Sequence record: OQ718158.1
Length of the DNA stretch: 64,000 nt
Reading direction: 5' to 3' (one strand)
Source: Escherichia phage vB_Ec-M-J
This document shows positions 3,380 through 47,058 of this stretch, piece by piece. The position numbers and the translations under genes were made by a program. The notes below the pieces were generated by a model. It ran no database searches. It had not been told where the DNA came from and saw only the letters and a program-made list of their open reading frames with translations. Positions within the stretch are counted from its first letter, which is position 1; each line of letters begins with the position of its first letter.

Positions 3380-3396
3380 ATATTGGAACAGACTAT

Positions 3397-3512
<116 letters not shown>

Positions 3513-3516
3513 AAAT

Positions 3517-3602
<86 letters not shown>

Positions 3603-3619
3603 CAATTAAAGGTTAAACC

Positions 3620-3780
<161 letters not shown>

Positions 3781-3784
<4 letters not shown>

Positions 3785-3941
3785 CACATGAAGAATGGAT
3801 GAATGACATTAATTTTAGATATTCGGGTATCGGTAAATGGCTAAAGTATCATTGGGAATTCATTTCAGAGCCACATCTGTATGATAAACTTATCAACGAT
3901 CCAGCATATGAAATGTACTTAATTGAACTACTGGTACGAAT

Positions 3942-3945
<4 letters not shown>
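3781..3945 (+). CDS. hypothetical 54-aa protein, MTHEEW family copy 2
   Basis: Near-identical 5' half to copy 1; ATGA overlap. Confidence 0.55.
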
Positions 3946-4113
<168 letters not shown>

Positions 4114-4114
4114 G

Positions 4115-4536
<422 letters not shown>

Positions 4537-4540
<4 letters not shown>

Positions 4541-4565
4541 CTAAATAGTTCAGTACTGATATAAT
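4537..4565 (+). promoter_or_regulatory. sigma70-like promoter with cagtactg spacer
   Basis: TTGACT-N17-TATAAT. Confidence 0.6.
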
Positions 4566-4569
4566 GAAT

Positions 4570-4910
4570 TCCACAATCAGACGTATATGGTGTAAGTTAC
4601 GTCGATGTAATCCAGAACAAGATCTCTGGTACTCTAGGAAGTGGTGAATGTTAACCTAGACGGGTTTGATAATTGGACGATAGGCAATTATTACTTGACT
4701 AGCAGGTTTAAACTAGAGGTGACAGTCCTTTACCAAACTGGAAAACCGGATGGACTTTTATTTAAAAGGGTAAGGCGTGGAAATATGTTTACAGTAGTTG
4801 CTTTTAGTAGCCTGTACGCCCCACGTCAAGGTAGCCGAAAGGCAAGTTAAAACGGGTGGTTATAAAGCTGAATTAACAGCGGCGTTTAAAAGCGTCACCA
4901 TCCATTTTTT
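4570..4910 (+). ncRNA. candidate structured non-coding RNA (about 340 nt)
   Basis: Promoter-proximal, locally GC-richer, no convincing ORF, ends in T8 run. Confidence 0.3.
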
Positions 4911-4928
4911 TTAATTAAAGTTGGTGAT

Positions 4929-5568
<640 letters not shown>

Positions 5569-5572
5569 CAAA

Positions 5573-5730
<158 letters not shown>

Positions 5731-5755
5731 CAAAAAAAAACAATGAGAGGTATAA

Positions 5756-6253
<498 letters not shown>

Positions 6254-6254
6254 T

Positions 6255-6286
<32 letters not shown>

Positions 6287-6330
6287 GATTCCCGATTCAG
6301 TAGTTTTAAAGCAGACCCGTATGTGCCTAT

Positions 6331-6422
<92 letters not shown>

Positions 6423-6441
6423 AGAGGTACTTCGAGTATGC

Positions 6442-6493
<52 letters not shown>

Positions 6494-6582
6494 TCAGTAC
6501 TACTTTTTAATTGACATATCATTGGATGAGGTGTAATATGGTTCAAGAAGAAAACTGGGGTTTTTAACACAAAGAGGCCAAT

Positions 6583-6725
<143 letters not shown>

Positions 6726-6726
6726 A

Positions 6727-6766
<40 letters not shown>

Positions 6767-6882
6767 TCAGGTCGATTAGTTAAAAGAGTATAACACGGAC
6801 CTTGTAAGTCTGAATAATCAGTGCAATTCTGATATTGACCTCAAAAATGATATTTTTCTTACATATAAATACTCCATAATAT

Positions 6883-18231: not shown

Positions 18232-19200
18232 GTGAAAAAGCTTGATTTAAATGCAATTTCTGAAGAAGTACTGGATGAGTGTTTTGCTAGTGAAGAAGTC
18301 AACGTATTAGAGGCTCTTGATTCCGTAGAAGAAGAAGAAGAACATGACGGTCACAAGTTTGAGAAACCAAAAACAGGTATCAGCTTAACTCGCCCTAAAG
18401 GGATAACGAATGAAATGCTCATCCAAGCAGTGCGTGATGGCATAGACGTTAAAAAGAACATTGACCTTTTGGTTCGCTACAACTATCCAATGGTAGTAAG
18501 TGTTGCACGTAAGTGTACATGTTTTATCCCATTTGAAGATAAGATTTCTTATGGTGTTGAAGGTTTAATGCGAGCAATTCATACGTTCGACACTACCAAA
18601 AATGTTAAGTTCATTACATATGCAACAACAACTGTGTACATGACAATCTATAACGAAAGTGCAGATGCTAATTATCTAGTGCATTTCCCACGTTATATGA
18701 GTGTTAATAACATTTATGTGAAACGTTGTGTTGAAGAGTATCAAAGGAAACATGGTAAATACCCAACTCCTGAGATGGTGTCAAAAGAGACTGGTATTGA
18801 GATTCAACACGTTAAGAATTGTCTAACTTACAATAACACTTATGTAGCATTGAATATGAAAATGAGTAATGATTCAGAAAGTACATTATCTGACATTGTT
18901 ACTTCAGTTGAACCTGATTACAACTTAGGTGTAGAAACTGTCAGTACCCCACTGGTACAAAGTATTGCAGAAATGATGAGTAACCTATCTACCAAAGACC
19001 GTGAATTGATTGAACGTGTACATGGTATTGGTTCTTATTCTGAACCAGAAACGCTACGAGAAATCATTGAGAGTGGTTTTGAAGATGAGAAGGGTAAGGT
19101 CATGACTGCTCGTTCTTCATTGCACCGTAAGTACTCTGAAGCAATGGAACGACTGCGTAAGATGGTTAAGACAAAAGGTTATGAGTTCGAAGATTTTTAA
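18232..19200 (+). CDS. RNA polymerase sigma factor, sigma-70 family (phage-encoded)
   Basis: GTG start after AGGAGAAG; region-2-like GVEGLMRAIHTFD...KFITYATTTVYMTI and region-4-like LSTKDRELIERVHGIGSYSEPETLREI; acidic N-terminus. Confidence 0.6.
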   Translation: MKKLDLNAISEEVLDECFASEEVNVLEALDSVEEEEEHDGHKFEKPKTGISLTRPKGITNEMLIQAVRDGIDVKKNIDLLVRYNYPMVVSVARKCTCFIPFEDKISYGVEGLMRAIHTFDTTKNVKFITYATTTVYMTIYNESADANYLVHFPRYMSVNNIYVKRCVEEYQRKHGKYPTPEMVSKETGIEIQHVKNCLTYNNTYVALNMKMSNDSESTLSDIVTSVEPDYNLGVETVSTPLVQSIAEMMSNLSTKDRELIERVHGIGSYSEPETLREIIESGFEDEKGKVMTARSSLHRKYSEAMERLRKMVKTKGYEFEDF

Positions 19201-19207
19201 GATTAAA

Positions 19208-19236
19208 GGGTTGACTTCGGTCAGCCCTTTTTTTAT
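19208..19236 (+). terminator. intrinsic terminator (PeSL-like hairpin lacking the -10)
   Basis: gggttgacttcggtcagccc UUCG-loop hairpin followed by T7. Confidence 0.65.
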
Positions 19237-19239
19237 GGG

Positions 19240-19760
19240 ACAAATTTATTAATGGTGATACAATGATCTATGTACAATCACAATGACAGTACTGGTACTG
19301 ACAATCTTCCCCTACTTCACTTGAAAATGTAAAGGATAGATGAGCTTTTCATTGTAGCGAACAGCAAAAGAAACCCGTTAGATGTGGGCATAGTTTGAAC
19401 CCCTCACGGCAATGCGGCTGTATAAAGAACCACGTTAGGATAGCTGGTGGTTCCTCGATAGACATATAAGGATAACACCTTACGAATTATCTAAGGGAGA
19501 GTTATCGAATTTTGTACAGGAAAGTTGCGTCCAAAATTTGAGTACTCACATTAAGTATTTGATTGCATAGATACTTAATGAAGATACACTATGTTTAAAA
19601 GTGTAGACCGTCATATGAAACTGAAGTAGAGAGAAACAGGATGACCCGCTTTCGCACTCGTTATGAGTAATCTTCAATGCAATAGCTCTGATACCATTAG
19701 CGTCAAATTTCCCTCCGTGCGGGGGGGAAGAAAAATCCCTTCCTCAAATCCCGTCAATAT
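19240..19760 (+). ncRNA. ORF-free structured region, candidate non-coding RNA
   Basis: About 520 nt with no ORF of 60 aa or more on either strand, locally GC-richer, between terminator and next promoter. Confidence 0.3.
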
Positions 19761-19769
19761 TAAAAGTCC

Positions 19770-19798
19770 TTGACAGTTATGATTCATTCGCGTAGAAT
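19770..19798 (+). promoter_or_regulatory. sigma70-like promoter
   Basis: TTGACA-N17-TAGAAT. Confidence 0.55.
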
Positions 19799-19862
19799 AC
19801 GTAGTATTAGAAGCGAACAGACATCTCGAAGAGATGGATGATTAACCACTAAGGAATATCTA

Positions 19863-20297: not shown

Positions 20298-21092
20298 ATG
20301 AGCACTATAGATGAATTGATTCGCCGGAATTCAAAATACTACGAACCATCAGAAATTGTCGGCAACATTACTAAATCTGAGTTCGGACCAAATACTCGAA
20401 AACTCATTCATGTAATGTCACGTGATGGCTTTAAATGTGATTGTTGTGGTGAATCCAATGTGGTATTCACTTTACATAAGCACAGTACTAAAGACCGTTA
20501 TAAATTCAGACCTTATGTACTTAAAGGGAAACGCCTTGTACGCATGACGTTAGACCATAATGTACTAGACTGTCTTCAGGGCGGTAATGATAAAGAGAAC
20601 ATGACTGCATTGTGTGAGGATTGTAACGCATTACGCCAGCATAAGTTTGCTGAGTACAGTGAGTTTAAGTACTGGTATCATAACGCAGATCGTTCCATCG
20701 AGCCTGACGTTAACTACTGCTTCATTGAGTACATTAAGAATGCAAAAGATACATACATTCTAAAATCAATGTCACCTATTACAGTGTTCCCTGAGAATCT
20801 ATTCAGTACTATGCAGCGTGATTTTAAACGTGGTATCATTAATGCATTCAAACACTTAGACAAAGGTATCAAGCACTTTGAGGTGCAATGCTTAAATGAA
20901 GGAATGAATCGTTTAGTACAAATTTACATGAAATCATTTATAGGTGTTGACACCGCACGTCTACCAGTATATAATTACTTTATTGAAAGCGAAGAAGGTG
21001 AATCACTTCGTGATTATGGTGAAAGATTTAATAATAAAGTTTTCACTGCAATCGCAAACGAGATTCATTACTATAAACCATATGTAATTTAA
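20298..21092 (+). CDS. HNH-family endonuclease-like protein
   Basis: ATG at 20298; KCDCCGE...LDHNVLDC...ALCEDCNALRQHK Cys/His/Asn motif. Confidence 0.5.
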   Translation: MSTIDELIRRNSKYYEPSEIVGNITKSEFGPNTRKLIHVMSRDGFKCDCCGESNVVFTLHKHSTKDRYKFRPYVLKGKRLVRMTLDHNVLDCLQGGNDKENMTALCEDCNALRQHKFAEYSEFKYWYHNADRSIEPDVNYCFIEYIKNAKDTYILKSMSPITVFPENLFSTMQRDFKRGIINAFKHLDKGIKHFEVQCLNEGMNRLVQIYMKSFIGVDTARLPVYNYFIESEEGESLRDYGERFNNKVFTAIANEIHYYKPYVI

Positions 21093-39856: not shown

Positions 39857-40216
39857 ATGGCATCTTTAAGTGAAATCGCGGAATACAACCCACTAACAAT
39901 CTCAACAATTCAACGTACAAAAACTTTTTATTTCCGTCCTGCTGATGGATGGAAACGTGGAATGAATGGTGACTATCGAGTACTGGAAGATGCACTCGTC
40001 GAGCGTATCAACTCTGAACTACATAAGTATGAAGGTGTTAAAGTTGTGCGTTCAACTTCTCGTTATTTTGAGTACTACATTGAGTCTTCAACTGTAAATG
40101 AAAACTCATCATTCTCGGTGGATAACACTGATATTCTTCGCAATGCAGTTGGTCTGTTATGCAACATTGCTGAGGAAATGGGATTAACTATTACTACAAT
40201 GAGTGAATTAGAATGA
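39857..40216 (+). CDS. hypothetical protein
   Basis: GAGGAA SD. Confidence 0.6.
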   Translation: MASLSEIAEYNPLTISTIQRTKTFYFRPADGWKRGMNGDYRVLEDALVERINSELHKYEGVKVVRSTSRYFEYYIESSTVNENSSFSVDNTDILRNAVGLLCNIAEEMGLTITTMSELE

Positions 40217-45205: not shown

Positions 45206-46330
45206 TTAATTATCTAAGCCACCAATTACACTGAACTGTGTGGTAACGTCTGAACTATTATCTATGTAAGTTCTTCGACCAACATAATATAGTTGTCCTT
45301 TTGCTTGAATAAAAGTTACGGTCCCTGTATTGAATGTTATAATATCATTGTATGTAATGTCAGGTGGTAGTGCTGCTGATAATGCAGTAACAGCACTTAA
45401 TGCAGCACTAGCACTACCATTTATACCAGCAGCAATACTACCAGTACCATAGAACTTATTATCTTTACCAATGAATACGTTGGCTGATGCTTGTGTAGCT
45501 GATGTTATTGCCTTACCAATTTGGAATGCGGTTCCTATGGTGTATGGTGTGCTCCTGGCTGCGTCTATGCTTTGTGTATATCCATCCCCTAGCTGACCAT
45601 TAACTTTGTCACCACATGAGTATAGAGTACCATTGAGGCTGTATATGATCCCACGGTTAGAGAAGCTAACAGCTTCTGCATTAGTCCATACTGGTGCGGT
45701 GTATGAGTTTACACGACTAGCGGTAGTTCCTAGACCTAGTATACCATATGTGTTATCACCACATCCAAACCATTGTCCAGAACTGTTTTGATAGAACACT
45801 GAACGTTCTGTTGATTCCATGCGTACAGCATCCACAGCACCACTTTTAACGAACGAAGTGGATGAGGATGTAGTACCAGTACCCAATGCACCATAAGTGT
45901 TTGTACCAATCGCATAGATTGATCCTAGTGGTGTCATAACACGTATGCAGTTATATCCCAATTGAACTTTACATTCAAATAGGTTGTCCCATATTTCAGG
46001 AACAGCAGAAAATAAATTTGTAATTTCGAACCATGATGTTGTCGAACCAGTTAATCCTATACTGCTTTTGTTTCCTAAAATGAAAACAGTTTTGTCCTTC
46101 TTAATTATCCATGATGATAGAAAGCCTATCTCACAGCTATGAACATTTGATTCGATTTGGGTAATATAATACTTAACGGTGTTATCACCCATAAATGCCG
46201 CAGCACCAGATGCAAAAAGGTTTCCAGTTTGTTTATTTAAAATGTAGTTATTGTTTCCATATACACTAACATCATAAGAACTTTCTTGTTTTTCGTTCCC
46301 ATAATCAAATAACAATACGAAAGGTAACAT
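45206..46330 (-). CDS. MLPF-family beta-propeller protein, paralog 1 of 15
   Basis: N-terminus MLPFVLLFDYGNE; RCC1-like blade CGDKVNGQLGDG; AAGGAG SD. Confidence 0.7.
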   Translation of the reverse strand: MLPFVLLFDYGNEKQESSYDVSVYGNNNYILNKQTGNLFASGAAAFMGDNTVKYYITQIESNVHSCEIGFLSSWIIKKDKTVFILGNKSSIGLTGSTTSWFEITNLFSAVPEIWDNLFECKVQLGYNCIRVMTPLGSIYAIGTNTYGALGTGTTSSSTSFVKSGAVDAVRMESTERSVFYQNSSGQWFGCGDNTYGILGLGTTASRVNSYTAPVWTNAEAVSFSNRGIIYSLNGTLYSCGDKVNGQLGDGYTQSIDAARSTPYTIGTAFQIGKAITSATQASANVFIGKDNKFYGTGSIAAGINGSASAALSAVTALSAALPPDITYNDIITFNTGTVTFIQAKGQLYYVGRRTYIDNSSDVTTQFSVIGGLDN

Positions 46331-46407
46331 GATAAAATCTCCTTGTGTTATACTTTATTTAATCATTTTATAATGTACAATTTTACAGCGATTTAATTGA
46401 GGTACTC
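46331..46407. promoter_or_regulatory. divergent promoter region
   Basis: A/T-rich 77-nt spacer between divergent starts, SD on each side. Confidence 0.4.
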
Positions 46408-47058
46408 ATGAATAAAAGAAGTAAGTTCTATCAAGAATATTTCACTAAACAGAAACGATTCACAAAAAAATACTTTACATCATCCCACCGACCAGTTGCA
46501 AGTTACAAACGTCCTAATACTAACTATCTTACTGGTGGCAAGTTTAGTGCAAAGTTCGAATTACTTATGCGTGAAAAGAATATCAAGATGCATTACGCAG
46601 AGACAAGAAAAAACTCATCAATTATTTGTTCTGATTTTCTTGAGTACGGTTGCTTAACTTATAAATTCAATGATGTATATTTGTATATTGATGTTGATTG
46701 TAACAGTACTCGTATGTTTGAGATTTCAATTCACCCAAATCACAACCGTTATATAAACATTAACTTGGTTGATAAAGTACTGATTGGTATATCTAGTACT
46801 GATGGTGGTGGATTTGAATTTATTGCTTCAAAATATGATGAAGATTTCGTACTTTACCCAGTACTTGATGATGTGAAAGATATTCTCAATTCATTAAAAG
46901 GAAGTCAATACAAATTATCTGAAGAACAGCTATTTCAGTACTCACTTATTCATGATGATATCGAGATATACTTAGAGTGTGCGAGAATCTTGGAGTATCT
47001 TTATAATGAACTAACAACAACTGGTAAAGTGACAGCATTCACATTATATAATATGTAA
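46408..47058 (+). CDS. hypothetical protein (EE-FQ motif family) embedded in the minus-strand array
   Basis: GAGG SD; SEEQLFQYSLIHDD motif. Confidence 0.6.
   Translation: MNKRSKFYQEYFTKQKRFTKKYFTSSHRPVASYKRPNTNYLTGGKFSAKFELLMREKNIKMHYAETRKNSSIICSDFLEYGCLTYKFNDVYLYIDVDCNSTRMFEISIHPNHNRYININLVDKVLIGISSTDGGGFEFIASKYDEDFVLYPVLDDVKDILNSLKGSQYKLSEEQLFQYSLIHDDIEIYLECARILEYLYNELTTTGKVTAFTLYNM

Follow-up and report, generated by a model that had tools for sequence, protein, structure and literature searches.

Within a 64,000-nucleotide (nt) stretch of DNA from Escherichia phage vB_Ec-M-J (OQ718158.1; hereafter the window), approximately positions 19271–19759 of the + strand form a conserved locus that is equipped with its own promoter and present in several copies per genome, and comparison of its homologs indicates selection on the + strand for an elaborate, pseudoknotted fold. 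The interpretation that we favour, at slightly better than even odds, is that this locus is the gene for a stand-alone, trans-acting large structured RNA, transcribed by the host RNA polymerase and belonging to an undescribed family.

The initial annotation, made from the letters of the window, had proposed a large non-coding RNA, or a replication or packaging element, at positions 19240–19760, citing a rare half kilobase without open reading frames (ORFs), locally higher GC content with G-runs, and many short complementary segments. Each of these observations holds. No ORF of 60 amino acids (aa) or more occurs on either strand between 19201 and 19862, and this 662-nt stretch is the longest such gap in the window: the next three (3380–3991, 5301–5755, and 6488–6882) are tRNA gene regions. 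The GC content is 0.392 over 19240–19760 and 0.403 over 19271–19759, compared to 0.351 for the whole window, in which only 2.4% of 490-nt windows are as GC-rich as the RNA locus. A G7 tract at 19721–19727 is the sole run of six or more G or C residues in the entire window, and the complementary segments are real helices, conserved by covariation. The non-coding RNA proposal is thus strongly supported (by conservation, a promoter in every copy, compensatory pairs, and + strand G·U pairs), while the replication element is retained as a rival, and a packaging site is unlikely because the element is present in four copies. The parts of the predicted gene are:

c. 19271–19759, + strand: RNA gene, approximately 489 nt, placed by alignments, RNAalifold, and the structure count, with inferred ends
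19237–19264, + strand: promoter of the RNA gene, with GGGACA (-35-like, 19237–19242), a 16-nt spacer, and TACAAT (-10, 19259–19264)
19280–19355, + strand: 5' domain, with long-range helix H1 (19280–19287/19349–19355) enclosing two hairpins
19357–19500, + strand: central domain, with helices H2 (19361–19365/19417–19421), H3 (19375–19378/19406–19409), and H4 (19427–19432/19448–19453)
19507–19542, + strand: peripheral module GAAUUUUGUACAGGAAAGUUGCGUCCAAAAUUUGAG (alignment columns ~345–380 versus ~515–545)
19549–19707, + strand: 3' domain, with hairpin H5, H7, H9 (19622–19626/19672–19676), H10 (19629–19633/19649–19653), H11, and pseudoknots PK1 and PK2
19562–19567 with 19678–19683, + strand: PK1, with 6/6 pairs covarying and 99.5% of cells paired
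19610–19614 with 19641–19645, + strand: PK2, 100% paired, with 3/5 pairs covarying
19696–19706, + strand: direct repeat site 1 (AUUAGCGUCAA), closing the RNA body, co-varying with site 2 across 66 copies
19708–19729, + strand: 3' hairpin H12, UUUCCCUCC-GUGC-GGGGGGGAA, read from the sequence and containing the G7 tract
19747–19757, + strand: direct repeat site 2 (AAUCCCGUCAA), the final block of conservation in the element

The fold as we define it has 16 helices and 75 pairs, including the two pseudoknots. When pairs were counted in 33 distinct homologs, using a MAFFT alignment that was not fitted to any structure, standard pairs occupied 96.1% of cells, compared to 37–45% when the 3' partners were slid by 1–3 columns; 56 of the 75 pairs show changes on both sides, and none of 500 shuffles reached any of five structure measures. 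RNAalifold predicted 76 pairs from 12 sequences (43 with compensatory double changes) and 69 pairs from 33 sequences (46 with such changes). G·U pairs are frequent (for example, at alignment columns 405/412 [GU in 33 sequences], at columns 477/498 [GU in 15, AU in 12], and in H12), which identifies the + strand as the folded one.

H1 is altered on both sides at 8/8 pairs across the copies, and encloses one variable hairpin and one hairpin with a conserved 9-nt loop, GAAAAUGUA (19323–19331). The central domain, on which we built covariance model R1 (model R2 was built on the 3' domain), contains the invariant strands CACGGCAAUGCGGC, GAUAGACAUAUAAGG (19457–19471), and AAGGGAG (19493–19499), and scores 142 bits with R1 (expectation value [E] 5e-32). 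Across the copies, the invariant unpaired strands are GAAAAUGUA, AAAAGAAAC/CAAUGCG, GAUAGACAUAUAAGG, AAGGGAG, CGACCGU, and AACCCGC. The peripheral module, which is approximately 32 nt long, occupies one of two alternative places depending on the copy, the alternative being inside the H11 loop; copy c4 of Escherichia phage EC22.5-2 and the island copies described below have it at both. Differences between paralogs sit in helices and not in a loop, so a paralog-specific 'guide' segment was rejected.

Escherichia phage fEgEco12 (PP777464.1), a member of Asteriusvirus with approximately 375 kilobases (kb) in the 121Q/PBECO4 group of RaK2-like jumbo phages, matches the window region at 99.7% identity, and blastn found the region in 61 phage records. 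The comparison with related phages that the initial annotation had suggested, with absence or lack of conservation in close relatives to count against a function, shows conservation even in distant genera: identity is 67–74% at the nucleotide level, over approximately 450 nt, both in Pectobacterium phage CBB, Cronobacter phage GAP32, and Serratia phage BF and in Yersinia phage fHe-Yen9-04, Salmonella phage Munch, Xanthomonas phage XbC2, and Erwinia phages. These distant homologs fill gaps of 600–700 nt that are unannotated or carry obviously spurious short genes, and their flanks differ from those of the window: the RNA element is conserved beyond its neighbouring genes, which are not even common to different genera. 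It was found in every RaK2-like jumbo phage examined, with at least four copies where these could be counted. In RaK2 itself one copy has been found so far; this copy, shared with Klebsiella relatives, is diverged (R1, 28 bits; E 1e-6) and lies in a 740-nt gap, with its 3' domain and 3' hairpin recognizable by eye. In sequence databases beyond these records, a strict 18-base family motif occurs at 31 IMG/VR loci, all on contigs of jumbo phage size with 2–3 loci per genome and no stray match, and a 23-base motif occurs at 39 metagenomic loci, mostly on contigs of 350–370 kb.

BLAST matches fall at 4–5 places per record, including those of Mimas- and Eneladusviruses. The genome of EC22.5-2, of which 350,000 of 351,992 bases were covered, has four copies at approximately 90.0, 143.4, 223.2, and 333.3 kb, all on one strand; R1 recovers exactly these four (113–146 bits) and the one window copy (142 bits), with everything else at 16 bits or less. 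Each paralog type keeps its own gene neighbourhood across genera, indicating that the duplications are older than the genera, and no protein family is common to all paralog neighbourhoods. Dosage or sub-specialisation is suggested by the fact that the 4–5 paralogs in each genome are ancient, syntenic, and equivalent in structure. Two candidate partners suggested by the window were rejected. The genes upstream of the four EC22.5-2 paralogs are unrelated, which breaks a link to the sigma-like gene that precedes the window copy, and the HNH gene that follows the window copy is not a conserved neighbour elsewhere, with HNH genes near some copies only, which breaks a HEARO-like link. In EC22.5-2, c3 is preceded by a gene for a DUF723/treble-clef/DUF2726 protein and c4 by one for an HNH protein, both endonuclease-like; this association does not hold consistently across genera.

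Some GenBank records place short genes on the region, as would be expected if it held small unannotated protein genes: those of WPEC3, WPEC5, SHEFM2K, SD-series Salmonella phages, JP4, and E9.1 have 3–5 hypothetical coding sequences across the RNA locus, and that of GAP32 has GAP32_503A on the 3' hairpin. An opposite-strand ORF of 71–90 aa is also present in 11 copies. However, no ORF is conserved across the copies, with those of the window copy reaching 36–45 aa only; insertions and deletions between copies are not multiples of three, a non-coding pattern, and conservation takes the form of covariation in paired columns rather than being codon-like. The only recurrent AUG, which follows the G-run, shifts frame between copies and is absent from the window copy, so a peptide starting there was likewise rejected. 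The hypothetical coding sequences are probably spurious gene calls. Given also that the element is conserved beyond neighbouring genes that are unshared between genera, we regard small protein genes, together with a decayed gene or chance spacer of no function, as excluded for practical purposes.

The extended -10 element of the window copy (TGaTACAAT, 19256–19264, with its TG at 19256–19257) lies just after the terminator of the preceding sigma-like gene. An extended -10 of the form TGnTAYAAT is present at the same relative place in 12/12 and in 25/25 further copies, as well as in the island copies, and lies 113–191 nt upstream of the core motif in every copy examined; a conserved end block, AAAYCNCGUCA, lies 312–355 nt downstream of that motif, again in every copy examined. 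In c2-type copies (EC22.5-2 at ~39931–39975 of locus L003, and loci L017, L018, L020, L024, L028, L031, and L036), a terminator-like hairpin and T-run stand between the -10 and the RNA body, so that the upstream gene's terminator appears to be nested inside the start of the RNA gene.

A promoter in front of a structured transcript would also suit a leader that acts in cis on the downstream operon (as a giant riboswitch, an attenuator, or a processive antiterminator), with a hairpin and U-run as its expression platform. Many copies do have a terminator-like hairpin and U-run between the body and the G-rich 3' hairpin, most copies are co-oriented with the downstream genes, and the window copy has no strong terminator ahead of the next genes. 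We nevertheless consider a leader quite improbable: c3-type copies (EC22.5-2 c3 and Munch) are followed by convergent, opposite-strand genes, which contradicts it, and the genes downstream vary from paralog to paralog and from phage to island. Moreover, a near-consensus promoter of its own precedes the next unit in the window, and the conserved 3' cassette sits beyond the terminator-like hairpin. The copies share no conserved co-oriented downstream gene of the kind that a riboswitch, T-box, or antiterminator would regulate.

The 3' cassette consists of the G-rich hairpin and the two direct repeats that enclose it. The hairpin is present in all copies, followed by a tail of approximately 25 nt; its alignment columns are 94% paired, with many U·G pairs, and its form elsewhere is UUCAUUCCCC-UGC-GGGGGGAUGAA. 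The window copy lacks the hairpin AUG, a loss that is compensated on the opposite hairpin strand. In one whole genome the hairpin motif accompanies RNA bodies at 4/4 loci and occurs nowhere else. The repeats (sites 1 and 2, approximately 10 nt each) change together in independent lineages among the 66 copies: the variants UCA..AUC and CCA..ACC are fully linked between the sites, CGUCA has become UGUCA at both sites in L041 and the L032 group and is CGACA at both sites in Serratia, and the A/G residue after CGUCA mostly agrees. No complementary partner that might act as an internal guide for the repeats is conserved inside the RNA.

Repeats of this kind recall two systems. Hepadnaviral DR1/DR2 are used for primer translocation, and in the DRT2 defence non-coding RNA (ncRNA) the inter-repeat segment is copied repeatedly by template jumping; both have two short direct repeats, kept identical and lying tens to approximately 100 nt apart. 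In contrast, the inter-repeat unit here has no fixed length and contains a hairpin in place of a coding template, and no reverse transcriptase (RT) was found in the jumbo phage genome, for which one RT type served as query. The likeness raises the alternative of a mobile or selfish RNA element, or a polymerase template RNA, in which the body would be a protein-binding scaffold and the segment between the repeats would be copied by template jumping; in a further variant, a non-autonomous cassette would spread into intergenic sites of phages and islands. By analogy, such an element could account for repeats that enclose a 50–110-nt segment and co-vary, in independent lineages, at four or more positions, for a multicopy, intergenic distribution with horizontal transfer between jumbo phages and integrative islands, for the homing endonuclease genes near 3/4 copies, and for the retron-type RT that one island also holds. 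We judge it improbable, since the paralogs are syntenic across genera and thus have not been mobile recently, the distance between the repeats varies (about 50–110 nt) with no conserved reading frame inside, the island RT is part of a retron-Sen2-like unit of its own at a distance of 3 kb, and the jumbo phage genome yielded no recombinase homolog and no match to a retron-type RT by tblastn (a weak negative, as a single RT type was used). Template RNAs that work with an RT, such as retron msr-msd and the DRT2 ncRNA, have the RT gene alongside. In the phage collection, a retron-type RT matched two Escherichia records, and the approximately 32 RNA-bearing Escherichia records were not among them.

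The RNA is also found in bacterial chromosomes. Four matches came from a scan in which each bacterial species was represented by one genome, 2 of 5,426 genomes in an E. coli collection contain the RNA, and the plasmids searched contained no copy. Full-length copies, which include promoter, body, hairpin, and both repeats, account for three of the four scan matches and for the E. coli copy that was examined; the island copy of Serratia sp. L9 is truncated at its 5' end. The elements that harbour them are integrative islands, approximately 10 kb in length where both ends were seen, located at ppdD-hofBC/nadC (Citrobacter and Enterobacter), near dapE (Serratia 2723), near rimO (Serratia L9), and near ffs (E. 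coli). Their integrases comprise three large serine recombinases that are 27–31% identical to each other and, in E. coli, a tyrosine integrase fragment. The RNA lies directly downstream of the integrase gene in serine-recombinase islands, while two annotated ORFs lie between it and the truncated integrase of the E. coli island; in Citrobacter/Enterobacter-type islands its slot precedes a CI-like repressor, and the copy in a metagenome-assembled genome also has such a gene just downstream. RNA-bearing islands carry defence cargo (a retron-Sen2-like RT with STM3845, GmrSD, and the candidate system PDC-M45), and sister islands without the RNA carry Hachiman and an NB-ARC protein. Because these sister islands have a related integrase or backbone and lack the RNA, the RNA is accessory island cargo.

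None of the island proteins tested has a homolog at any phage RNA locus, and for the integrases, the RT, and a neighbouring 165-aa protein there is no homolog in the phage at all. The sole protein match between island and phage is a DUF4326 ORF of the E. coli island, which matches at approximately 130.4 kb, some 13 kb from the nearest RNA copy, and is absent from the other islands. The islands themselves form a family: L093 (Enterobacter roggenkampii), L051 (Citrobacter), L094 (Hafnia), L095 (Serratia liquefaciens), and L099 (E. coli LR-29-1). A 118-aa protein and a small resolvase make up the backbone common to L093, L094, and L099, to which L093 and L094 add a CI-like repressor, an HTH_35 protein, and a 186-aa protein, while L095 shares the integrase family and insertion site only. 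Integrases are interchangeable in this family and the cargo varies (retron-Sen2-like RT with STM3845, GmrSD, NB-ARC, Hachiman, SIR2, or PDC-M45), the RNA being optional cargo between integrase and repressor.

That the element is the only thing consistently common to phage and islands is what would be expected of a pirated cis site, and the main rival to a trans-acting RNA is a transcription-primed replication origin, in which, by analogy with ColE1 RNA II (a pre-primer) or the R-loop origins oriF and oriG of T4, the structured RNA would be a pre-primer. The G-rich cassette would then be the site of an RNA-DNA hybrid or of primer hand-over, and the identical repeats would let the 3' end of the primer re-anneal downstream, as with hepadnaviral DR1/DR2. 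Four to five such origins over 350 kb would serve a T4-like replisome, and the islands would carry a copy for amplification upon infection. The dispersal of the copies (at ~90, 143, 223, and 333 kb of 352 kb), the strong host-type promoter in every copy, the location of the region's sole G-run at the 3' end of the RNA-like strand, and the co-variation of the direct repeats, a signature of template or primer switching, are all consistent with this model, as is the sequence of features that it shares with ColE1 RNA II and oriF/oriG: a sigma-70-type promoter, a non-coding transcript of approximately 0.5 kb, and a G-rich segment near the 3' end. Several copies in a large genome with a T4-like replisome would also fit a multi-origin design. 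However, 16 covarying helices and two pseudoknots with invariant loops far exceed the needs of known origin transcripts, whose folds are far less elaborate and conserved. The four copies show no relation to GC-skew switches and one is at a convergent gene junction, there are no iterons, DnaA boxes, or conserved DNA beyond site 2, and the islands are without recognizable replication genes. An antisense partner of the RNA I type was not seen either, though no search aimed at one was made. On balance, we find an origin doubtful.

We return to the stand-alone, trans-acting RNA, for which the following course of events can be proposed. Host sigma-70 RNA polymerase would transcribe the RNA from its own extended -10 promoter, as suggested by the promoter type and by the intact copies in chromosomal islands of uninfected cells. 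The transcript would fold into three domains, held by long-range helices and the two pseudoknots, and would end in the cassette, with its G-rich hairpin between two identical repeats of approximately 10 nt. It would act in trans as a ribonucleoprotein scaffold, a ribozyme, or, by analogy, a self-assembling particle of the ROOL/GOLLD type, and would work with host components or alone, given that no protein gene travels with it. Action as a free RNA is suggested by the lack of any retained cis or protein partner and by the occurrence of the element as a portable module in two very different contexts.

A number of points weigh against this proposal. Transcription is inferred for every family member, and trans action solely from the fact that no cis partner is conserved; the transcript ends are likewise drawn from sequence, so that 19271 and 19759 are approximate. 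Taken by itself, the window copy has a fold only modestly better than that of shuffled sequences (z = -2.0), and the structural evidence is comparative, not thermodynamic. Approximately half of the copies have a terminator-like hairpin and U-run before the 3' hairpin, and the cassette may therefore be outside the main RNA. The co-varying direct repeats are left unexplained by a simple scaffold model. Finally, a distantly related jumbo phage offers no detectable homolog. The Pseudomonas phage PA5oct resembles these phages in having four ORF-free transcribed regions (ncRNA001–004, 236–619 nt), which are transcribed according to RNA sequencing, two of them very strongly, and for which its authors report no similarity outside MIJ3 (PMC7318152). 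Searched with R1 and R2 with filters off, these four regions score 4.6 bits or less, with no detectable homology. PA5oct ncRNA004 (L096, 246116–246734) ends in AUUUCCUUCCC-AAAC-GGGGAGGAAAU, like the pyrimidine/G-rich 3' hairpin of the family. A GAAAUGUA loop also lies close to the 5' end of this RNA, which might be either very distantly related to the family or convergent with it.

A bolder version, which we hold to be quite doubtful, is that the RNA is an essential, protein-independent machine of RaK2-like jumbo phages (a ribozyme or self-assembling particle), with the cassette serving strand or template switching and the island copies acting as decoys or pirated modules. If this were true, islands could sense, exploit, or poison an infecting jumbo phage, the island copies would amount to an RNA-only anti-phage or phage-hijacking device, and the switching would represent primer hand-over at multiple origins or repeated copying. 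The family is tractable: phage Sharanji grows on E. coli K-12, there are several paralogs, and natural variants supply compensatory mutations. Three of its features (multicopy synteny, co-varying repeats, and presence in defence islands) are without a ready explanation, and each gives testable predictions. There is also a correction to be made to annotation, as many GenBank records leave the four loci blank or filled with spurious hypothetical proteins.

The neighbourhood of the window copy includes the following features:

18232–19200, upstream of the RNA gene: sigma-like gene, with Pfam Sigma70_r2 and Sigma70_r3
19205–19230, + strand: intrinsic terminator of the sigma-like gene, found by scan (11-bp stem, 4-nt loop, T-run); upstream boundary, outside the RNA
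19770–19798, + strand: promoter of the next transcription unit, TTGACA-17-TAGAAT (11/12); downstream boundary, outside the RNA
20298–21092, 450 nt downstream: HNH-motif ORF, annotated as an HNH endonuclease in fEgEco12
3423–6842: tRNA cluster of five genes (Ser-tga, Ser-gct, Met, Asn, and Thr), accounting for the other large ORF-free gaps

The initial annotation had placed the element between this terminator and the next promoter. Our scan recovers both boundaries, but the region's own promoter at 19237–19264 had been missed, and what lies between is a gene that has a promoter to itself and belongs to a set of four paralogs per genome, rather than an element defined by its neighbours. The sigma-like protein contains Pfam Sigma70 regions 2 and 3 only, without region 4, and would fit promoters that are read without a -35. 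Its terminator, AAAGGGTTGACTTCGGTCAGCCCTTTTTTT (19205–19234), is a stereotyped phage terminator that recurs near-identically at many gene ends of the window (approximately 27679, 31267, 32054, 33631, 34315, 38938, 40415, and 41828), with 28–29 nt exact in three. Downstream of most RNA copies examined, within approximately 110 nt after site 2, are 5-bp hairpins with a G-N-A triloop: in the window these are AATAC-GTA-GTATT (19796–19808) and ATCTC-GAA-GAGAT (19823–19835), and others are near the copies of L039, L043, L037, L040, L047, and Munch. Such a hairpin is often right behind a TTGAC(A/T) hexamer and just ahead of the next start codon, too close for an ordinary promoter, and may be a phage regulatory or boxB-like signal. 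The GC skew of the window flips from positive to negative at approximately 46000–47000, coinciding with a change in gene orientation.

The Rfam scan that the initial annotation had recommended matched no family to the element. Rfam 15 at gathering thresholds identifies five tRNAs only in the whole window; at E ≤ 10 the region gives only chance matches of 11–20 bits, mostly on the terminator, and at E ≤ 1 nothing is found on the element at five homolog loci. GOLLD, ROOL, OLE, HEARO, RNase P, tmRNA, 6S, introns, and T-box are therefore excluded as currently modelled, and the Rfam 15 models for raiA, omega RNA, and group I/II introns were also without a match. A search for tRNA and tmRNA genes returned only the known tRNA cluster, 12 kb from the RNA locus. 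In our literature search, which included the genome papers of fEgEco12, UE-S1, and PA5oct, no description of the element was found, and the family thus seems to be undescribed so far. A group I/II intron was rejected on the additional grounds that the element has its own promoter and lies between complete, unrelated genes that differ between paralogs. Guide or partner RNAs of mobile-element enzymes (the omega RNA of IscB/IsrB/TnpB and the IS110 bridge RNA) lie next to the gene for their nuclease or recombinase. Compared with these, the phage copies have no common neighbour; the RNA does follow an integrase gene in islands, but at least three unrelated integrase types are involved and sister islands are without the RNA.

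To our knowledge, few classes of large, complex bacterial or phage RNAs exist, and each has so far led to new biochemistry: catalysis in the case of RNase P and the self-splicing introns, an RNA guide in that of HEARO, and RNA-only cages in that of ROOL and GOLLD. At more than 400 nt, with 16 covarying helices, 2 pseudoknots, and no conserved ORF, the element has the attributes of a large ornate phage RNA, of which GOLLD and ROOL, frequent in phages and prophages, are the closest in kind. Like these, it is several hundred nucleotides long, has many covarying helices, pseudoknots, and invariant unpaired strands, and is borne by phages without an associated protein gene. RNA-only homo-oligomeric assemblies of ROOL and GOLLD have been visualized by cryo-electron microscopy (PMC12286853). 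The element differs from them in sequence and structure, matching neither Rfam model, and in setting: it occurs as 4–5 syntenic paralogs per genome instead of one, in Enterobacterales jumbo phages and away from tRNA genes, has a 3' cassette with co-varying direct repeats, and is carried as cargo by integrative defence islands.

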